DNA of 64,000 bases from an uncultured Gammaproteobacteria bacterium (GTDB lineage Bacteria; Patescibacteriota; Patescibacteriia; Magasanikbacterales; JBBTQS01), in the NCBI GenBank assembly GCA_964627525.1, contig CAZVIA010000004.1:1565-65564 (forward strand). The letters run 5' to 3'. Made by a program: the position numbers and the translations under genes. Shown here piece after piece: positions 22,221 to 59,544 of this stretch. The stretch's first letter is position 1, and each line of letters opens with the position of its first letter. The notes under the pieces were generated by a model, which saw only the letters and a list, made by a program, of their open reading frames with translations, was not told where the DNA came from and searched no databases.

Positions 22221-22258
22221 ACAAATCATTGCCAAATTTTGGCAATGATTTGTTTTTG
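22221..22258. terminator. Bidirectional Rho-independent terminator (13-bp perfect stem)
   Basis: The hairpin is acaaatcattgcc-aaatttt-ggcaatgatttgt, followed by a T-run. It lies between the recA 3' end and the reverse-transcriptase fragment 3' end. Confidence 0.6.
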
Positions 22259-22280
22259 AATTTCATAAGCATCTGCATAC

Positions 22281-22793
22281 TTACACAAACCCAAATATTG
22301 TTTTTTGCGAAGTTATTTTTTGCTTAAGAATTTGAAGTAAAATTTCATGATCAATAGAATCAAAAAACTTTTTAATATCTATTTTTAAAGACCAGCAGAT
22401 ACGCGAATAATTTTTACTTGATTTACGAGCAAATTTATTTAATCTATTCACTGCAGCATGAGTACCTTTTCCAATTCTACAAGAGTAAGAATCATAAACA
22501 AAACCGGAATCAAACATTGGATACAAAATCCTGTGAATAGCATGATGAACTAATCTATCTCGCACACTGGCTTTATGAATTATCCTGTGTTTTGGATCGT
22601 GGATATGAAATTTGTAATAACCTCCATGTTGATATACTCCTGAAACCAATTCATCTCTCAAACAAAAAATATTATCTTCCAAATATCGTTCAAATAATTC
22701 AACACCTGGCTTGGTTCTCTTTCCCTTAGAAAAATCTTTCCAAGCTAAAAATAAATTATTTAAATTTGTAATCTTATTATATATGTCATCCAT
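22281..22793 (-). CDS. DGR/retron-type reverse transcriptase, N-terminal fragment (motifs 0-2 only, probably truncated)
   Basis: It has LFLAWKDFSKGKRTKPGV (RT motif 0), IHKASVRDRLVHHAI (motif 1), SYSCRIGKGTHAAV (motif 2a) and IDIKKFFDSIDHEILL (motif 2). The ORF then stops, with no YxDD motif or thumb, and only about 30 nt remain before the recA terminator. Confidence 0.6.
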   Translation of the reverse strand: MDDIYNKITNLNNLFLAWKDFSKGKRTKPGVELFERYLEDNIFCLRDELVSGVYQHGGYYKFHIHDPKHRIIHKASVRDRLVHHAIHRILYPMFDSGFVYDSYSCRIGKGTHAAVNRLNKFARKSSKNYSRICWSLKIDIKKFFDSIDHEILLQILKQKITSQKTIFGFV

Positions 22794-23127
22794 ATACGAA
22801 ACTTCTATATTTAAACTTACTTATGATGTGCTTAAAGAAATACATATTGCCAAAAGGTCATTTCTAAAATCAGAAAAATACACGCTTGGTGAAGTGCTTG
22901 AAAATTCCCTACTAAAAACACTTCTTGCAATTGTAAAGACAGGAAAAACAAAGCCCAAGTGGAAACTCCCAGTAATAGAAGAGGCACAGATTCATCTTGA
23001 AAAAACAAAAATACTTATGCGTCTAGCGATTGACCTAGATCAAATTAAAGGCAAACGAATAAATTATCTACGAGAACACACACAAAGAATAGGTCAGGAA
23101 TTGGGTGGGTGGAAACGGTCTTTATAA
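22783..23127 (+). CDS. avd: Avd-like four-helix-bundle protein (DGR accessory variability determinant / 23S-IVS protein family)
   Basis: It is about 114 aa. Its C-terminal IGQELGGWKRSL resembles the conserved ...LGG.I..L end of Avd/IVS four-helix-bundle proteins, and the helical heptad pattern fits. Its start codon overlaps the reverse-transcriptase start on the opposite strand. Confidence 0.6.
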   Translation: MSSIYETSIFKLTYDVLKEIHIAKRSFLKSEKYTLGEVLENSLLKTLLAIVKTGKTKPKWKLPVIEEAQIHLEKTKILMRLAIDLDQIKGKRINYLREHTQRIGQELGGWKRSL

Positions 23128-23131
23128 AAAT

Positions 23132-23158
23132 TTGCAACGCTGATTTGAGGCGTTGCAA
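23132..23158. terminator. Hairpin terminator (9-bp stem ttgcaacgc/gcgttgcaa) between avd and the template repeat
   Basis: The perfect inverted repeat is followed by a TCTCTTTT run on the + strand and an A/T run on the - strand, so it may act as a bidirectional terminator. Confidence 0.5.
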
Positions 23159-23167
23159 ATTCTCTTT

Positions 23168-23297
23168 TACACTCCCGACACGAAGCCGAACCATAACGCG
23201 AGTTCGTATTGTCATCCCAGTTCCAGCTCAACTTCGGTCCGTCGAGCCACAAGTTGAGGTACGCAAAGTTCTCGCGATTGTCACAATGGACAGAACT
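23168..23297 (-). repeat. DGR template repeat (TR)
   Basis: It is 130 bp and 90% identical to 23637..23766. At 11 of the 13 mismatches this copy has A on the minus strand where the other copy has G, T or C. Three AAC codons in the matched frame are among the varied sites. The copy is non-coding, and the overlapping ORF 23109..23300 is spurious. Confidence 0.75.
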
Positions 23298-23545: not shown

Positions 23546-23573
23546 GACTCTGGCTTTGTTACAAGTCAGAGTC
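23546..23573 (-). terminator. Rho-independent terminator of the DGR target gene
   Basis: The inverted repeat gactctg...cagagtc is followed on the minus strand by a UUCUUUUUUU run. It lies about 60 nt past the target-gene stop codon. Confidence 0.45.
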
Positions 23574-23628: not shown

Positions 23629-24369
23629 TTACTTAATACACTTCCGACACGAAGCCGAACCATCACGCGAGTACGCATTGACATCCCAGTCCCAGCCCAA
23701 CTCCGGCCCGTCGAGCCACAAGCCGAGGCACGCAAAGTTCTCGCGATTGCCACAATGGACAGAACTGGGTAGATCCACGTAGTGATCTTGCAGAACCTTT
23801 CTATTCTGGGCAAACAATGCAAGACCCTCCATTGCATCAAGTCCGATTTCATTTTTTTCAAACTCTTTACGACAAGTTTGGACATTCTTTCCTAGATTGC
23901 GCTTACCATCTTGGCACCAAATCCAGTATACATCTTGTTTTTTGACTTGTTCTGGATTGAATGGTTCAAATGTAGAATTGTTTCCAGTGAACTTTACTCC
24001 TAGAAGTTCGCAGACTTTGACAAGTCCGCCGAATTTGAAGCTCTTTCCATCCTCACCTTTAGTACACGCGATGCGTGCATCTACTAGAACAAGTTTGTCC
24101 AAGTAGTCTGGGAGATCTTCAGAACGCTCTGGCTCTGGAGGAATGAACTCAAGGTACTCAGCAAATGTGCTATAACCAAGCACTTCTCCAAAACCACAAT
24201 CCCAGAGGAGTTTGGCTTGGTGTTCGCGGATGTTGCTTTGTTCTTCTGCAACAGTCTCTCCACGCAAAATGCGGATCACAGCTTCCAAGCCACCGAGTTT
24301 GGTGACCAAAGCTTTGACATGCCCAATGCGAAAATCATCGACCTTTTTCACAGAGTCTAGGTCGTGCAT
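23629..24369 (-). CDS. DGR target (variable) protein, 246 aa, with the variable repeat at its C-terminus; no signal peptide seen
   Basis: The ORF has a visibly higher G+C (around 45%) than its neighbours. The C-terminal variable repeat is Trp/Gly/Asp-rich, as in the C-type-lectin-fold variable regions of DGR targets, although the fold is not verified. Confidence 0.65.
   Translation of the reverse strand: MHDLDSVKKVDDFRIGHVKALVTKLGGLEAVIRILRGETVAEEQSNIREHQAKLLWDCGFGEVLGYSTFAEYLEFIPPEPERSEDLPDYLDKLVLVDARIACTKGEDGKSFKFGGLVKVCELLGVKFTGNNSTFEPFNPEQVKKQDVYWIWCQDGKRNLGKNVQTCRKEFEKNEIGLDAMEGLALFAQNRKVLQDHYVDLPSSVHCGNRENFACLGLWLDGPELGWDWDVNAYSRDGSASCRKCIK
23637..23766 (-). repeat. DGR variable repeat (VR), 3' end of the target gene
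   Basis: This copy is the partner of the template repeat. It encodes the C-terminal 43 aa (SSVHCGNRENFACLGLWLDGPELGWDWDVNAYSRDGSASCRKC) of the target protein and ends 5 nt before the stop codon. Confidence 0.75.
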
Positions 24370-24505
24370 CTTTCTCTCCTTTGGTCTATTTGACCATCAG
24401 TTTTACCTCTACCCGAGGCCTGGGTCTGCAAAGACTACAGACAATTTATACTAGCACTTTTTATGTAAGATGTCAAGTCTATTTTCAAAAAAGGCTCTTC
24501 AAAAC

Positions 24506-24787
24506 CTAAAACCGATTCCAAAATCCCTTATAAGCAATTGACCTGTGTCCAATTTTAAAAATTTTAACTTTTTTCTTTTCAATACGAAAAATTACCCTAT
24601 AGTCGCCCACACGTAATTTTCTATTATTTTTCAAAGATTTCCTCAATGGTTTGCCAAACTTTTCCGGTGCTACTAATAATTTTTCCTCAATTGATTTTTT
24701 AATTCTATCCTTAATTGATACACCTAATTTAGGTATATCTTTTTTAACAACTGACTCATGATACTCTATTTCATAACTCATACCCAT
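24506..24787 (-). CDS. relE: Type II toxin, RelE/ParE family
   Basis: It has a C-terminal VGDYRVIFRIE...KIGHR motif. It overlaps the upstream antitoxin gene by 10 nt. Confidence 0.75.
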   Translation of the reverse strand: MGMSYEIEYHESVVKKDIPKLGVSIKDRIKKSIEEKLLVAPEKFGKPLRKSLKNNRKLRVGDYRVIFRIEKKKVKIFKIGHRSIAYKGFWNRF

Positions 24788-24999
24788 ACACTATCATGAG
24801 GAATAAATTCTGCATTATTAGTATCACGTTTTTTAACAATAGTATCCCAAACTTCGTCTTCTTCAATTTCTACTGCTTTACAGATTAATTCCAAAGCTTT
24901 TGTAGCCAAAGGAACACCATCTCTTTCAGCAAGACGACCAAGAATTTTTTCCATTTCTTTGGGTAATGCAAGATTAATACGTTTTTTTAATGTAGGCAT
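24778..24999 (-). CDS. Ribbon-helix-helix (CopG/RelB-type) antitoxin
   Basis: The N-terminal KRINLALPKEMEKILGRLAERDG is an RHH signature, and it sits directly upstream of relE. Confidence 0.6.
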   Translation of the reverse strand: MPTLKKRINLALPKEMEKILGRLAERDGVPLATKALELICKAVEIEEDEVWDTIVKKRDTNNAEFIPHDSVWV

Positions 25000-47868: not shown

Positions 47869-48233
47869 AATTTTTTTGTAATCCAGTAATCAAACAATAT
47901 CAAATCTAGGGGGAAAAGAAAAGAGTCTTGGGGTAGAATGTGCCTAATTCATGGCCATCTTATCTCCAAGACTCTGATGTTGGGTGCTGTGCTGACAAGT
48001 AGATGGTTGGTGGGAGCTTGTACGAGAATGCTTTTACCCACCATGCTACGTTGTGTAGCCCGTCTCACACCCCTTCTGACTTGCTTGCGGGCCAGTACCC
48101 GAAGTGTGGCGCTTCAAAATGGTTCTGGTGTGTACCAAAATTCACACAAATGCCAACACAGCATGTATTTTTATATCATTTTTGTTGAGATGTGTCAAGC
48201 GAATGTGGTATTCTGTCAATATAACAACCAAAT

Positions 48234-50924
48234 ATGACACCTGAAAAAATACGAAATAAGTTTGTGATATTAGATGGAAATGCGATTATTCATCGTGCTT
48301 ATCATGCACTTCCGCCTCTGACAAGCAAAAAAGGCCAAATGGTAAATGCTGTTTATGGTTTTGGAACAATTTTAATTAGAATTTTAAAAGAATTAACCCC
48401 AACTCATGTTGTGGTAACTTTTGATTTGGCTGGGCCAACTTTTCGTCATGAAAAATACGAAGATTATAAAGCCACTCGTGTAAAAGCAGATGATGAGTTG
48501 TATGAGCAGATTCCGCTGATTCATGAGTTGGTTGAAGCTTTTAATATTCCAATTGTTGAAAAGAAGGGTTTTGAAGCTGATGATTGTATTGGTACTTTGG
48601 TGAAAAAAGTTGAGCGCGGTGGTAAAACCGATGTTGTGATTGTTACAGGTGATTTAGATACTTTGCAATTAGTTGATGATCATGTGACGGTTTATACAAT
48701 GCGAAAAGGCATGAGTGATATTGTTGAATATGATCGTGCTGAAGTTGCAAAGCGGTATGATAGTTTGACTCCAGAGCAAGTGATTGATTTTAAGGCGTTG
48801 AAAGGTGATGCAAGTGATAACATAAAAGGTGTGAAAGGTATTGGTGAAAAAGGTGCGATTGATTTGTTGAAAAATTTTAAGAGTTTGGATGGAATTTATA
48901 AGGCAGTTGATTCTATTGATGCTGATTCTGGCAAAACTGGCGCTAGTGGCAAAACTGAAAAAATTAAGCCAGCTACTTTGAAAAAATTAATTGACAGTCG
49001 CAAAAGTGCATATGAATCTCAGGAATTAGCAACTATTGTTTTAGATGTTCCAATTAGTCGTGGGTTAAAAGATTTTATTCGTAAGCCAGTTAATGAAAAA
49101 GCTTTGTTGGAGTTGTTGCAAGAATTAGAATTTACTTCTTTGTTGTCTCGCATTCCTGGAATGAAAAATAAAATTGTTGTAGCAAAGAAAAAAAATGTAA
49201 AAATTGTTGAGTTGGGTCAAGGTGATTTGTCTGGGGTTTTTGGGAAAATTGAAAAAGAAGATGAGGTGGGTGTGGTTTTGCAAACAACTGATGAGGGAAA
49301 TTTTTTGGATAAAGAAATTTTAGGGTTGGCAATTGTGAGTGCGCGAAATAATTGGTATGTTTCTGCAGAAGTTAAAGGTTGGGAAAAATTGTTGAGTGCG
49401 AAAACTCGTTATTGTGTGCATGATTCAAAAGAGTTTGTAAAAGTTTTGTGGGAAAATGGTGTTGTTGAACCGAAAAATATTTTTGATGTGATGATTGGTT
49501 CTTATTTATTACATTCAGAAAGTCGTGCGCATGGTTTGGATGCTTTGGCTTTAAAATATTTGGGTGAGAAAATTGAGAAGTCGGACAAGCAGGCGAGTTT
49601 GTTTGGAAAGCCAAAAGAAAATGTTGTGGCAGAGGCAGGTGCGGTTTTTGGAATTGCAAAACATGTTGATAAGGAAATGGAAAAAGTTTTGGTGTGGGGT
49701 TTGTATGAAAAAATTGAAGGGCCATTGGTTGAGGTTTTGGCGCGCATGGAACGTCATGGAATTGCGATTGATTCTGGGCTATTGGCGAGTTTGGCAAAAA
49801 AAGTTGATGCGCGTTTAGGAGAATTGGAAAAACAAATTCATAAACATGCGGGTAAAGATTTTAATGTAAATTCTTCAGCGCAGTTGCGTGATATTTTGTT
49901 TGAGGATTTGGGGTTGCCAACTCAAGATATTAAAAAAGGTAAGACAGGTTATTCAACTGCGGCAACTGAATTGGCAAAGCTCAAAGGTTTTCATCCGATT
50001 ATAGAATTGATTGAGGAGAATCGTGAACTGACAAAATTGAAAACAACTTATATTGATGTGTTGCCAACTTTGACTCATGAAAAAACGAAACGCATTCACA
50101 CAACTTTTAATCAAACTGTAACTGCAACTGGACGTTTGTCTTCTTCAGAGCCAAACATGCAAAATATTCCAACGCGCACTGAAGAGGGTCGCAAAATTCG
50201 CGATGCTTTCGTTGCTGGGTCTGGTTGTACTTTGGTGGTTGCTGATTATTCCCAGGTTGAATTGAGGATAGTTGCTTCTTTGGCAAATGATGCTGGGATG
50301 ATTGAGATTTTTGAGAAAGGTGAGGACATTCATAAATCAACTGCAGCAAAAATTCAGGGCGTGGCTTTGGATAAAGTTACTTCTGACATGCGTCGTAAAG
50401 CCAAGGAAGTTAATTTTGGGGTTTTGTATGGAATGGGTTCATTTGGTTTGGCGGCGCGTACTGGAATTTCTAGAGCTGAAGCACAAGAGTTTATTGAAAA
50501 ATATTTTAATGCGTTTAAAGGTGTTAAAAAATATATTGATGAGACAATGGATTTGGCAAAGAAAAAAGGATATGTTGAAACAATGTTTGGTCGGCGCAGA
50601 TATATTCAAGATATTGGTTCAAGTAATTTTCAAGTGCGAGCTGCAGCAGAGAGAATGGCAATTAACCACCCTGTTCAAGGGACTGCAGCTGATTTGATGA
50701 AGTTAGCAATGATTGAAGTTGATAAATTTATTATTGATGAGAAATTGGAAGACAAAGTAAAAATGTTATTGCAAGTTCACGATGAATTGGTTTTTGAGGT
50801 TAAGGATTCTATGGCGGAAAAAATTGCAAAGCAAATTAAGGAGATTATGGAATCTGTGATAAAATTGCGTGTGCCAGTTGAGACAGATGTTGGTATTGGT
50901 AAAAGTTGGGGTGCTGCAAAATAA
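48234..50924 (+). CDS. polA: DNA polymerase I
   Basis: It has a 5'-3' exonuclease N-terminus, a polymerase domain with RRKAKEVNFGVLYGM and HDELVFE, and 896 aa. Confidence 0.95.
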   Translation: MTPEKIRNKFVILDGNAIIHRAYHALPPLTSKKGQMVNAVYGFGTILIRILKELTPTHVVVTFDLAGPTFRHEKYEDYKATRVKADDELYEQIPLIHELVEAFNIPIVEKKGFEADDCIGTLVKKVERGGKTDVVIVTGDLDTLQLVDDHVTVYTMRKGMSDIVEYDRAEVAKRYDSLTPEQVIDFKALKGDASDNIKGVKGIGEKGAIDLLKNFKSLDGIYKAVDSIDADSGKTGASGKTEKIKPATLKKLIDSRKSAYESQELATIVLDVPISRGLKDFIRKPVNEKALLELLQELEFTSLLSRIPGMKNKIVVAKKKNVKIVELGQGDLSGVFGKIEKEDEVGVVLQTTDEGNFLDKEILGLAIVSARNNWYVSAEVKGWEKLLSAKTRYCVHDSKEFVKVLWENGVVEPKNIFDVMIGSYLLHSESRAHGLDALALKYLGEKIEKSDKQASLFGKPKENVVAEAGAVFGIAKHVDKEMEKVLVWGLYEKIEGPLVEVLARMERHGIAIDSGLLASLAKKVDARLGELEKQIHKHAGKDFNVNSSAQLRDILFEDLGLPTQDIKKGKTGYSTAATELAKLKGFHPIIELIEENRELTKLKTTYIDVLPTLTHEKTKRIHTTFNQTVTATGRLSSSEPNMQNIPTRTEEGRKIRDAFVAGSGCTLVVADYSQVELRIVASLANDAGMIEIFEKGEDIHKSTAAKIQGVALDKVTSDMRRKAKEVNFGVLYGMGSFGLAARTGISRAEAQEFIEKYFNAFKGVKKYIDETMDLAKKKGYVETMFGRRRYIQDIGSSNFQVRAAAERMAINHPVQGTAADLMKLAMIEVDKFIIDEKLEDKVKMLLQVHDELVFEVKDSMAEKIAKQIKEIMESVIKLRVPVETDVGIGKSWGAAK

Positions 50925-59184: not shown

Positions 59185-59544
59185 TTAGTACAGCAAGTGC
59201 TTTGCAAGTGTGACTGCAGCTGCAAAAGCAAAGATCCATGTAGAGCAAAACACCACAACATGTGGCTTGAACACATGTTTCCAAGGTACTTTTGCTCCGC
59301 CTCGGATCCAGTGGTTTGTGCCCCCAACATCATACATGATGCAGCTCAGAGCAATGACTGCACCAATCGGACCTGCTACACCAAATGACCAAAGTGTGAT
59401 CATCTCGAAGTTTTTGGTACTCATGGTCTCCCAAGGTACACCATAGCTTCCAGATGCCGCGTAGGAAAGCCATGCACCAAGAGCAACTGCTCCAAGGGCA
59501 GAAACTACAATGACCAAAGCCTTGATTTGTTGCCGAATTGGCAT
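59185..59544 (-). CDS. Small membrane protein (about 4 transmembrane helices), hypothetical, compositionally atypical
   Basis: It is a 119-aa hydrophobic ORF whose G+C is visibly higher than its neighbours. It is the longest frame among several overlapping spurious ORFs. Confidence 0.4.
   Translation of the reverse strand: MPIRQQIKALVIVVSALGAVALGAWLSYAASGSYGVPWETMSTKNFEMITLWSFGVAGPIGAVIALSCIMYDVGGTNHWIRGGAKVPWKHVFKPHVVVFCSTWIFAFAAAVTLAKHLLY

Follow-up and report, generated by a model that had tools for sequence, protein, structure and literature searches.

The sequence analysed here is a 64,000-nucleotide stretch of DNA (the window), which is AT-rich (35.3% GC, 0.353) and densely packed with housekeeping genes: rpoBC, ftsK, recA, efp, ssb, rpsF/R, dnaA/N and polA. 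RecA relatives at 77–81% identity are annotated as Ca. Magasanikbacteria, Ca. Nomurabacteria or Patescibacteria group, the closest RecA matches reaching up to 85%, and because the annotated relatives belong there the host is taken to be a CPR/Patescibacteria bacterium. Use of an alternative genetic code is unlikely, as the long housekeeping ORFs remain intact under table 11. A DGR locus lies in this region with recA on one side and, on the other, a ParE/RHH pair adjoining efp. Read along the minus strand, a promoter-like site and a ribosome-binding site precede the target gene with its VR, which is followed by a terminator-like hairpin, the TR, a strong hairpin, avd on the opposite strand and an RT ORF. 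The individual features are as follows.

24448..24476, minus strand: sigma-70-like promoter (TTGACA, 17 nt, TAGTAT, with TG), a consensus match only (10/12 in a consensus scan)
24374..24381, minus strand: ribosome-binding site AAGGAGAG, 5 nt before the ATG of the target, from reading of the sequence
23629..24369, minus strand: DGR target gene, 246 aa, an ORF with 10 close homologues, 569 profile matches and an AlphaFold2 model
23637..23766, minus strand: VR, 130 nt, the last ~45 codons of the target, from the TR/VR alignment; variable positions at 23664-23747, 3' invariant end at about 23637-23663
23546..23573, minus strand: terminator-like hairpin with U run just past the target (fold z = -3.9)
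23168..23297, minus strand: TR, non-coding, GC 0.515, from the TR/VR alignment and the A-masked pattern
23129..23161, no strand assigned: hairpin of 13-15 bp directly following the TR and likewise located 3' of the convergent avd (RNA fold z = -5.6)
22786..23127, plus strand: avd, 113 aa, its start overlapping the RT start divergently (Pfam bAvd, PHROG)
22281..22793, minus strand: RT remnant, a 170-aa ORF (RVT_1 model positions 8-97 of 205; similarity to the RT of the sister cassette L008)
22226..22297, minus strand: last ~22 codons of the RT (YLGLCKYADAYEIQKQIIAKIWQ and stop), now in the +1 frame (BLASTP to the C-half of the L008 RT; DNA alignment)

The strong hairpin at 23129..23161 probably terminates both transcripts, that on the TR side and that of avd.

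The original prediction that the 246-aa ORF is a DGR target is correct. VR and TR are 90% identical over 130 nt, with 13 mismatches, 11 of which are located at TR adenines; these comprise nine A>G and two A>T changes, accompanied by one T>G and by one G>A in the 3' invariant end. By analogy with the Bordetella system, the latter would represent the usual kind of IMH/IMH* difference. Setting this difference aside, VR carries a single non-adenine change and the last homing event therefore appears to have been recent. The A-masked TR/VR pattern matches twice in the window against zero matches expected, and avd is recognized by both Pfam bAvd (44.2 bits, cutoff 40) and the PHROG 'Avd protein of DGR' (2e-13). 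RT relatives that bear names are assigned to Uhrbacteria, Magasanikbacteria or Patescibacteria. The target ORF encodes the variable protein of a DGR belonging to a Patescibacteria-restricted (CPR) clade.

The RT gene at the locus is internally deleted. Residues 1–166 of the ORF correspond to DGR RT motifs 1–3, being 70% identical to the L008 RT, and are followed by four out-of-register codons and a stop. The RT tail, YLGLCKYADAYEIQKQII, is encoded in the +1 frame and aligns with residues 116–136 of the L008 RT C-half (57% identity, E 2e-8, BLASTP). The internal loss amounts to ~0.4 kb and removes motifs 4–7, including motif 4 (GLPIGNLTSQ), YxDD and motifs 6–7; no YxDD-containing RT was detected in any frame of the window. 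Truncation of the RT 3' end by recA was considered and rejected because the RT's own C-terminal codons persist, in another frame. An assembly error is likewise discounted, as the 170-aa ORF recurs in four other assemblies obtained from different samples. Since the RT lacks motifs 4–7, the cassette is non-autonomous: the local RT is non-functional and the locus constitutes a non-autonomous DGR derivative with intact TR, avd, VR and target ORF.

Simple-sequence tracts were encountered in related RT genes. Among the best 120 of 569 homologues of the RT N-half, all are 129–252 aa in length and none contains an in-frame motif 4 or YxDD; these reading frames stop shortly past a tract situated between motifs 3 and 4, which is either poly-G (translated as GGG) or (GA)n (translated as ERER). 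Tract length is G9 in L008, L009 and L011 and G8 in L010, where an in-frame length would be G7 or G10. The tract is G10 in L023 (OZ246408.1, a 1.0-Mb single-contig assembly), G9 in L025 and L026 and (GA)7 in L024. In every tract case examined at the DNA level, an intact C-terminal RT half with YxDD follows the tract in a different frame. In addition, L009 and L010, which originate from different samples, differ by one G in the tract as the sole difference over 7,468 nt.

The combination of tracts with an out-of-frame YxDD half would suggest phase variation or slippage-dependent RT expression, and no report linking DGRs with poly-G or (GA)n tracts was found in the literature searched. A broader reading of the locus can be built on this, in which the RT is held out of frame by a hypermutable, phase-variable tract and concerted conversion between target and paralogs leaves a G+C excess in the targets, both phenomena being apparently undescribed. 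The RT would be off in the bulk of the population and on in rare slipped variants or via slippage during expression, targets and dispersed paralogs would co-evolve by cDNA- or paralog-mediated conversion, giving rise to the G+C excess over host and RT/avd, and the RT-deleted cassette of the window would represent a frozen end-state that is still reshuffled from a paralog. We offer this reading tentatively, as one that is possible but short of being favoured.

The target protein is composed of a paralog-specific helical N-terminal part of ~90 aa followed by a DUF5701-related C-terminal domain of ~155 aa. A word search recovered 10 close homologues and a profile search 569 representative clusters (E<=1e-3), which for the most part comprise proteins 190–300 aa in length. 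No Pfam family matched the target itself at E<=1, including FGE-sulfatase, DUF1566, Lectin_C and DUF5701, placing it below every Pfam threshold. DUF5701 (PF18959) was matched by 9/87 of the profile-search relatives over their C-terminal half, the best at 2.3e-26, while the close homologue P0010 scored 26.4 over its C-terminal half against a cutoff of 27.4. Since only relatives match and the target has no Pfam matches, the relation of the target to DUF5701 holds at the superfamily level only. No mention of DUF5701 was found in the literature searched. PADLOC and PHROGs returned no match for the target, so that assignment as a defence-system or phage-structural protein is unsupported; the PADLOC matches of a relative, P0011, are generic kinase matches.

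Structure prediction yielded a confident AlphaFold2 model, with a pLDDT of 90.5 for the full-length target and a pLDDT of 96.0 and pTM of 0.91 for the domain alone (residues 86–246), in which the VR forms the last four beta-strands. Searches with Foldseek against PDB and BFVD gave no match at E<=0.001 and retrieved no solved DGR variable protein. Among PDB matches with >=110 aligned columns, the C-type lectin is the sole recurring fold, none of these matches being significant. The best is the Bd2740 C-terminal domain (8oks; E 0.05, probability 0.91, TM 0.61 by target length), and further matches consist of snaclecs (EMS16, rhodocetin, ZK002) and BDCA2 at TM 0.45–0.49. Within the VR, scaffold columns conserved across the family (L200, S203, A213, L215, P222, L224 and G237–R241) alternate with columns of >3 bits entropy, as is expected of a diversified surface. 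Thus, the domain probably adopts a divergent C-type-lectin-like fold, judging from the model, and its variable surface may serve in ligand binding. The fold that had been proposed from the sequence is probable: the model is confident and only C-type lectins recur in the PDB search, but no structural match reached E<=0.001.

It is rather unlikely that the C-terminal domain is instead a distinct alpha/beta scaffold (DUF5701), separate from C-type lectins and independently recruited by DGRs. The missing Foldseek match at the above threshold in PDB and BFVD, the rmsd of 8–9 Å to the best matches and the lack of Pfam matches to FGE-sulfatase, DUF1566 or Lectin_C would all agree with such a scaffold, as would a profile search of PDB sequences, from which nothing meaningful emerged beyond spurious MHC matches, and a VR ending in GSASR, not the usual GFR-type motif. 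However, every match spanning at least 110 columns is a C-type-lectin fold, with the probability and TM-score of the top match given above, and the position of the VR at the extreme C-terminus together with the alternation of scaffold and hypervariable columns resembles known C-type-lectin variable proteins.

The window TR is associated with more than one target. The VR of P0002, located on L003, departs from the window TR at 17 adenines and at the shared IMH-like 3' G>A but nowhere else, and P0002 is a second target of the window TR or of an identical TR copy. L003 originates from the same sample as L017, a sequence with a recA identical to that of the window, and its GC is the same; P0002 is therefore probably in the same genome as the window, as sample, composition and TR match indicate. 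From codon ~80 (nt 241) up to the stop, identity between the two genes is 82–97% in each 60-nt block, and a further 88 nt past the stop are identical, the hairpin at 23546..23573 included, while their 5' parts are unrelated. Two additional paralogs, P0003 and P0004, are single-gene GC-rich islands in a DNA-repair/sigma-factor interval and an ftsZ/ftsA interval; both are older, with VRs that have accumulated changes at non-adenine sites, and one of them is frameshifted. The sister lineage likewise has a remote target that is matched by its local TR, with an L004/L005 VR whose 16 mismatches are all located at adenines. No relatives of the target emerged when JGI metagenome contigs and IMG/VR were scanned, and a scan of metagenome contigs for the A-masked TR/VR pattern gave no extra VR alleles and no second TR.

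Comparison of L017 with the window revealed 7,113 nt that are identical except for 14 positions, all of which fall within the VR and 13 of which are at TR adenines. These differences were initially taken as proof of current activity, an argument which has been withdrawn since the L017 VR (allele B) is identical to that of P0002 on L003. Two VR alleles, from different samples, exist at the locus in at least five assemblies. Gene conversion between the paralogs can account for both without RT activity after the deletion; alternatively, mis-phasing by the assembler could have produced the match between the L017 and L003 VRs as an artefact.

DGR components work in trans in the Bordetella phage system. 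The locus might accordingly still be diversified by a full-length RT encoded elsewhere in the genome, acting in trans on RNA of the local or an identical TR and on both VRs. The 14-position VR difference between strains that have the RT deletion in common and show no other difference over 7.1 kb is in keeping with such a supply, as are the intact TR, avd and target and the low number of non-adenine differences from the TR, one in the local VR and, beyond the shared 3' G>A, none in the remote VR. We nevertheless regard an RT acting in trans as unlikely. Neither the window nor the 16.8 kb surrounding the paralog yielded a second RT, and the nearest other RT among 5.8 billion proteins is only 70% identical. 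Just two VR alleles occur in the at least five assemblies, one of them equal to the paralog VR, which fits conversion better than independent random mutagenesis, and the VR of the sister lineage does not vary among four samples.

The N-terminus of the target is well defined: an in-frame TGA stands 10 codons ahead of the start codon, the intervening codons offer no alternative start, and the AAGGAGAG ribosome-binding site further fixes the position. No signal peptide, lipobox or TM helix was identified in the target by a heuristic hydropathy check, and the same heuristic found no hydrophobic stretch in the target or its nine closest homologues. The maximum Kyte-Doolittle 19-residue mean of the target is 1.05, compared with 1.96–2.03 in two membrane-anchored proteins of the window, and the longest uncharged run in its first 45 residues is 4 aa. 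Two fusion architectures place the domain in the cytoplasm: in P0011 it forms the C-terminus of a 1007-aa Ser/Thr kinase without a TM-like segment, and in P0048, an MFS transporter, it is located beyond the last TM and a KKKK motif. The target would thus be soluble and most likely cytoplasmic, on the basis of hydropathy and of these two fusions. The claim that no signal peptide or TM segment is visible at the N-terminus is upheld by the heuristic check, and the view that the protein looks cytoplasmic is plausible, with support at the level of the family.

A cytoplasmic-looking target lacking a recognizable domain is the rule in CPR DGRs and has already been reported there and in cyanobacteria. 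Targets of CPR clade 2 are typically devoid of TM or other recognizable or conserved domains, although whether they are truly non-membrane proteins was left open (Roux et al. 2021, PMC8144416), and most cyanobacterial variable proteins are predicted to be cytosolic (Vallota-Eastman et al. 2020, PMC7517822). It is improbable that the target is exported or surface-exposed in the absence of an N-terminal signal and, in the manner of classical DGR targets, helps an episymbiotic CPR bacterium to attach to other cells or to its host. The majority of cellular DGR targets are binders anchored in the membrane (Roux et al. 2021), the C-type-lectin-like structural matches are all extracellular binders, and the target contains nine cysteines, of which C120, C152 and C166 are invariant among the ten closest homologues and which could imply disulfides and hence an extracytoplasmic life. 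A surface role is at odds with the hydropathy of the target and its close homologues, in which signal peptide, lipobox and TM are lacking, with the occurrence of the domain in a TM-less kinase and at the cytoplasmic end of an MFS transporter, and with the genomic context, in which no secretion or pilus genes adjoin, the neighbours being recA, parDE-like genes and efp.

Per-gene computation confirmed that the target and TR are G+C-richer than the RT, avd and housekeeping genes, as had been noticed from the sequence. With a GC of 0.464 and a GC3 of 0.449, the target is the strongest compositional outlier of the window, in which the 43 other ORFs of >=150 aa have a GC of 0.352 and a GC3 of 0.222 (sd 0.046, maximum 0.366). 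Corresponding GC and GC3 values are 0.342 and 0.237 for avd and 0.288 and 0.199 for the RT remnant. Amino-acid composition is ruled out as the cause, because the target simulated with host codon usage has a GC3 of 0.222±0.024 and reaches only 0.314 at maximum in 10,000 simulations. Adenine depletion is also eliminated, coding-strand A (0.275) not being below T (0.260). The excess extends over all three parts of the gene, with GC3 values of 0.467 in the 5' part, 0.349 in the core and 0.660 in the VR.

The same compositional order was observed in other cassettes:

Window cassette: target GC 0.46, host GC 0.35, RT GC 0.29
L011 cassette: target GC 0.52, host GC about 0.42-0.47, RT GC 0.32-0.37
L023 cassette: target GC 0.60, host GC 0.43, RT GC 0.37-0.41
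L024 cassette: target GC 0.69, host GC 0.65, RT GC 0.54-0.57
L025 cassette: target GC 0.65, host GC 0.46, RT GC 0.39-0.43
L026 cassette: target GC 0.68, host GC 0.53, RT GC 0.44-0.48

Target GC exceeds that of the host, which in turn equals or exceeds that of avd/RT, in 6/6 cassettes from hosts of 35–65% GC, 4/5 of the other targets (all but L023) belonging to the same family by conserved motifs read by eye. The L008/L011 sister cassette has the same VR-TR offset as the window (469 nt), a likewise inverted avd and the same GC mosaic, and its RT and TR are 70% and about 78% identical, respectively, to those of the window. Shared offset, inverted avd and RT identity indicate that target, TR, avd and RT descend as a unit. 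The GC mosaic is clade-wide, not the product of a local graft, and since the excess recurs across hosts of 35–65% GC it provides no evidence of recent transfer in the clade. The excess might stem from GC-biased gene conversion between paralogs that evolve in concert, from an A>G bias in the mutagenesis (for the VR only) or from selection on expression. No account of such a mosaic was found in the DGR papers searched for composition terms; the term 'GC content' is absent from the text of Roux et al. 2021 (PMC8144416), and Wu et al. 2018 consider GC of the whole DGR only, a deviation of which is used as a sign of transfer.

The original prediction attributed the mosaic to a foreign target/TR module grafted onto native RT and avd, a proposal that is unsupported in light of the homologous L008/L011 cassette and the recurrence of the mosaic in all six cassettes. 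Recent acquisition of target and TR from a GC-richer donor would explain why target GC3 and TR GC (0.515) stand apart from RT and avd GC3 values, which match those of the host (0.222), and it could draw on the occurrence of family members in higher-GC hosts, on paralogs that, within AT-rich genomes, stand as GC-rich islands of one gene each at four housekeeping loci unrelated to one another and on the use of atypical GC as evidence of DGR transfer (Wu et al. 2018). Yet the homology to L008/L011 extends to the whole cassette, the direction of the mosaic is the same across host GC of 0.35–0.65, which random transfer would not always yield, and avd/RT are below the host, and so not native-like, in L011, L024, L025 and L026; in the window they look native because the host itself is AT-rich. 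A graft is thus very improbable.

The window element is a degenerate DGR of a kind already known, for which the Patescibacteria/CPR 'clade 2' DGRs, reportedly described by Paul et al. in 2017, provide the closest setting. Like these, it is cellular and not viral, its RT relatives are Uhrbacteria, Magasanikbacteria or Patescibacteria, its target is without TM, signal peptide or recognizable Pfam domain and there is more than one target per TR; it is unlike them in the internal RT deletion and in a target family tied to DUF5701 and to kinase and MFS fusions. Cyanobacterial variable proteins (PMC7517822) are also mostly predicted to be cytosolic, with dispersed paralogs of varying VR/TR homology, and consist of single C-type-lectin domains or of a C-terminal C-type-lectin domain on an N-terminal Ser/Thr kinase, an architecture comparable to that of P0011. 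In contrast, they belong to another phylum and another RT clade, the window protein is without a kinase and the cyanobacterial FGE-type C-type-lectin domain has no detectable sequence relation to the window domain. The DGR of Bordetella phage BPP-1 (Mtd, Avd, TR, Brt) shares with the window a C-terminal VR derived from the TR, adenine-specific changes, Avd, VR and TR 3' ends that differ by one base in an IMH/IMH*-like manner and a hairpin downstream of the VR. Unlike the target, Mtd is a trimeric phage tail-fibre tip exported with the virion, and the BPP-1 genes are co-oriented whereas in the window avd is inverted, overlapping the RT start, and the RT is non-functional. The C-terminal domain of Bdellovibrio Bd2740 (8oks), a C-type-lectin variant matching Mtd (PMC10769870), is the best structural match of the model but has 10% sequence identity at an rmsd of about 8–9 Å, and it is a surface-fibre tip that is not diversified by a DGR.

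Combined, these observations are best explained by a soluble Patescibacteria DGR target residing in an RT-deleted cassette, in which paralog conversion has probably occurred and the GC excess is a trait of the clade, a reading to which we assign a probability of roughly 60%. The last ~45 residues, forming four beta-strands, would have been rewritten from the TR by adenine-specific mutagenic retrohoming to produce a variable binding surface, carried by a DUF5701-related C-type-lectin-like domain that follows an N-terminal helical part differing between paralogs. Internal loss of ~0.4 kb from the RT gene has left the cassette no longer autonomous in the window genome, with gene conversion between the target and P0002 presumably responsible for the two VR alleles at the locus. 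The GC excess would be a conserved trait of target genes in this DGR clade, avd and RT being conversely AT-shifted.

The kinase and MFS fusions, together with a confident structural model, provide concrete handles on the question raised by Roux et al. (2021) as to whether such targets are truly non-membrane proteins, and the clade-wide mosaic calls for caution in GC-based inference of horizontal transfer in DGRs. If RT genes of this clade are indeed universally interrupted by tracts, surveys which require an intact RT ORF would under-count or mis-annotate CPR DGRs, and targeted hypermutation would itself be gated by a stochastic switch.

In most cassettes, adenine substitutions in the variable repeats (VRs) show a strong bias towards A>G, this change accounting for 9 of 11 in the window VR (23637-23766), 15 of 17 in L003 (the locus of target homologue P0002), 18 of 22 in the sister cassette L008 and 14 of 15 in L025, a further cassette of the clade. 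As a consequence of this bias, VRs are GC-richer than their template repeats (TRs), with values of 0.585 and 0.515, respectively, in the window. Two LAGLIDADG ORFs are also observed upstream in L008.

The VR of the target homologue P0005 was compared with the TR of the L008/L011 sister cassette, and all 16 differences occur at adenines, indicating that a second, remote target belongs to the L008/L011 DGR as well. The local and remote target N-terminal types are swapped in this lineage relative to the window lineage. In AT-rich hosts, two further GC-rich target paralogs were observed as single-gene islands whose VR-like ends have drifted, one of the two being frameshifted. Conservation among target paralogs extends about 65 nt past the stop codon.

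Remote VRs and dispersed target paralogs
L004:8594-8719, P0005 VR
L005:6087-6212, P0005 VR
L021:2325-3161, paralog between ftsZ and ftsA
L019:3496-4209, paralog with a DNA-alkylation-repair gene on one side and a sigma-factor operon on the other

The only genome with target relatives in the species-representative collection is MAG CAZKMQ01 (L012, L013, L014), which carries three target paralogs and a Patescibacteria-type DGR, with about 42% GC; its label, 'uncultured Gammaproteobacteria bacterium', looks taxonomically doubtful.

PemK-type toxins border the P0005 paralog (L004, L005, L007), and a ParE-toxin/ribbon-helix-helix antitoxin pair with a GC of about 0.29 lies directly upstream of the window target gene, flanked by the DGR on one side and efp on the other. 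Two short window ORFs are also GC-rich (GC 0.44-0.48, GC3 0.43-0.45), far above the genome; neither has a Pfam or credible Rfam match. Unrecognised RNA genes and small foreign islands are both possible readings of these ORFs.

Window features
24506-24999 (-), ParE/ribbon-helix-helix pair
47938-48237 (+), short GC-rich ORF
59185-59544 (-), short GC-rich ORF

The start codons of avd (+) and the reverse transcriptase (RT) gene (-) overlap divergently by 8 nt in the window (22786-22793), leaving no intergenic promoter space, and avd is similarly inverted in L011, L024, L025 and L026.

In RT genes of the Patescibacteria DGR clade, a tract of poly-G (G8-G10) or (GA)7 breaks the reading frame between motifs 3 and 4; in the window RT the equivalent site is deleted.

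RT tracts
L008:5028-5036
L010:3087-3094
L023:4661-4670
L024:4545-4559
L025:6590-6598
L026:6548-6556

Past the tract, the RT C-terminal half is present with YxDD intact but in a different frame, and none of the best 120 of 569 homologues of the window RT N-half reads through the tract. The literature searched yielded no match for an RT-interrupting tract in DGRs. Over 7.5 kb, a single G in the tract is the sole difference between two samples of the sister cassette (L009 and L010). The tract may represent phase variation or slippage-dependent RT expression.
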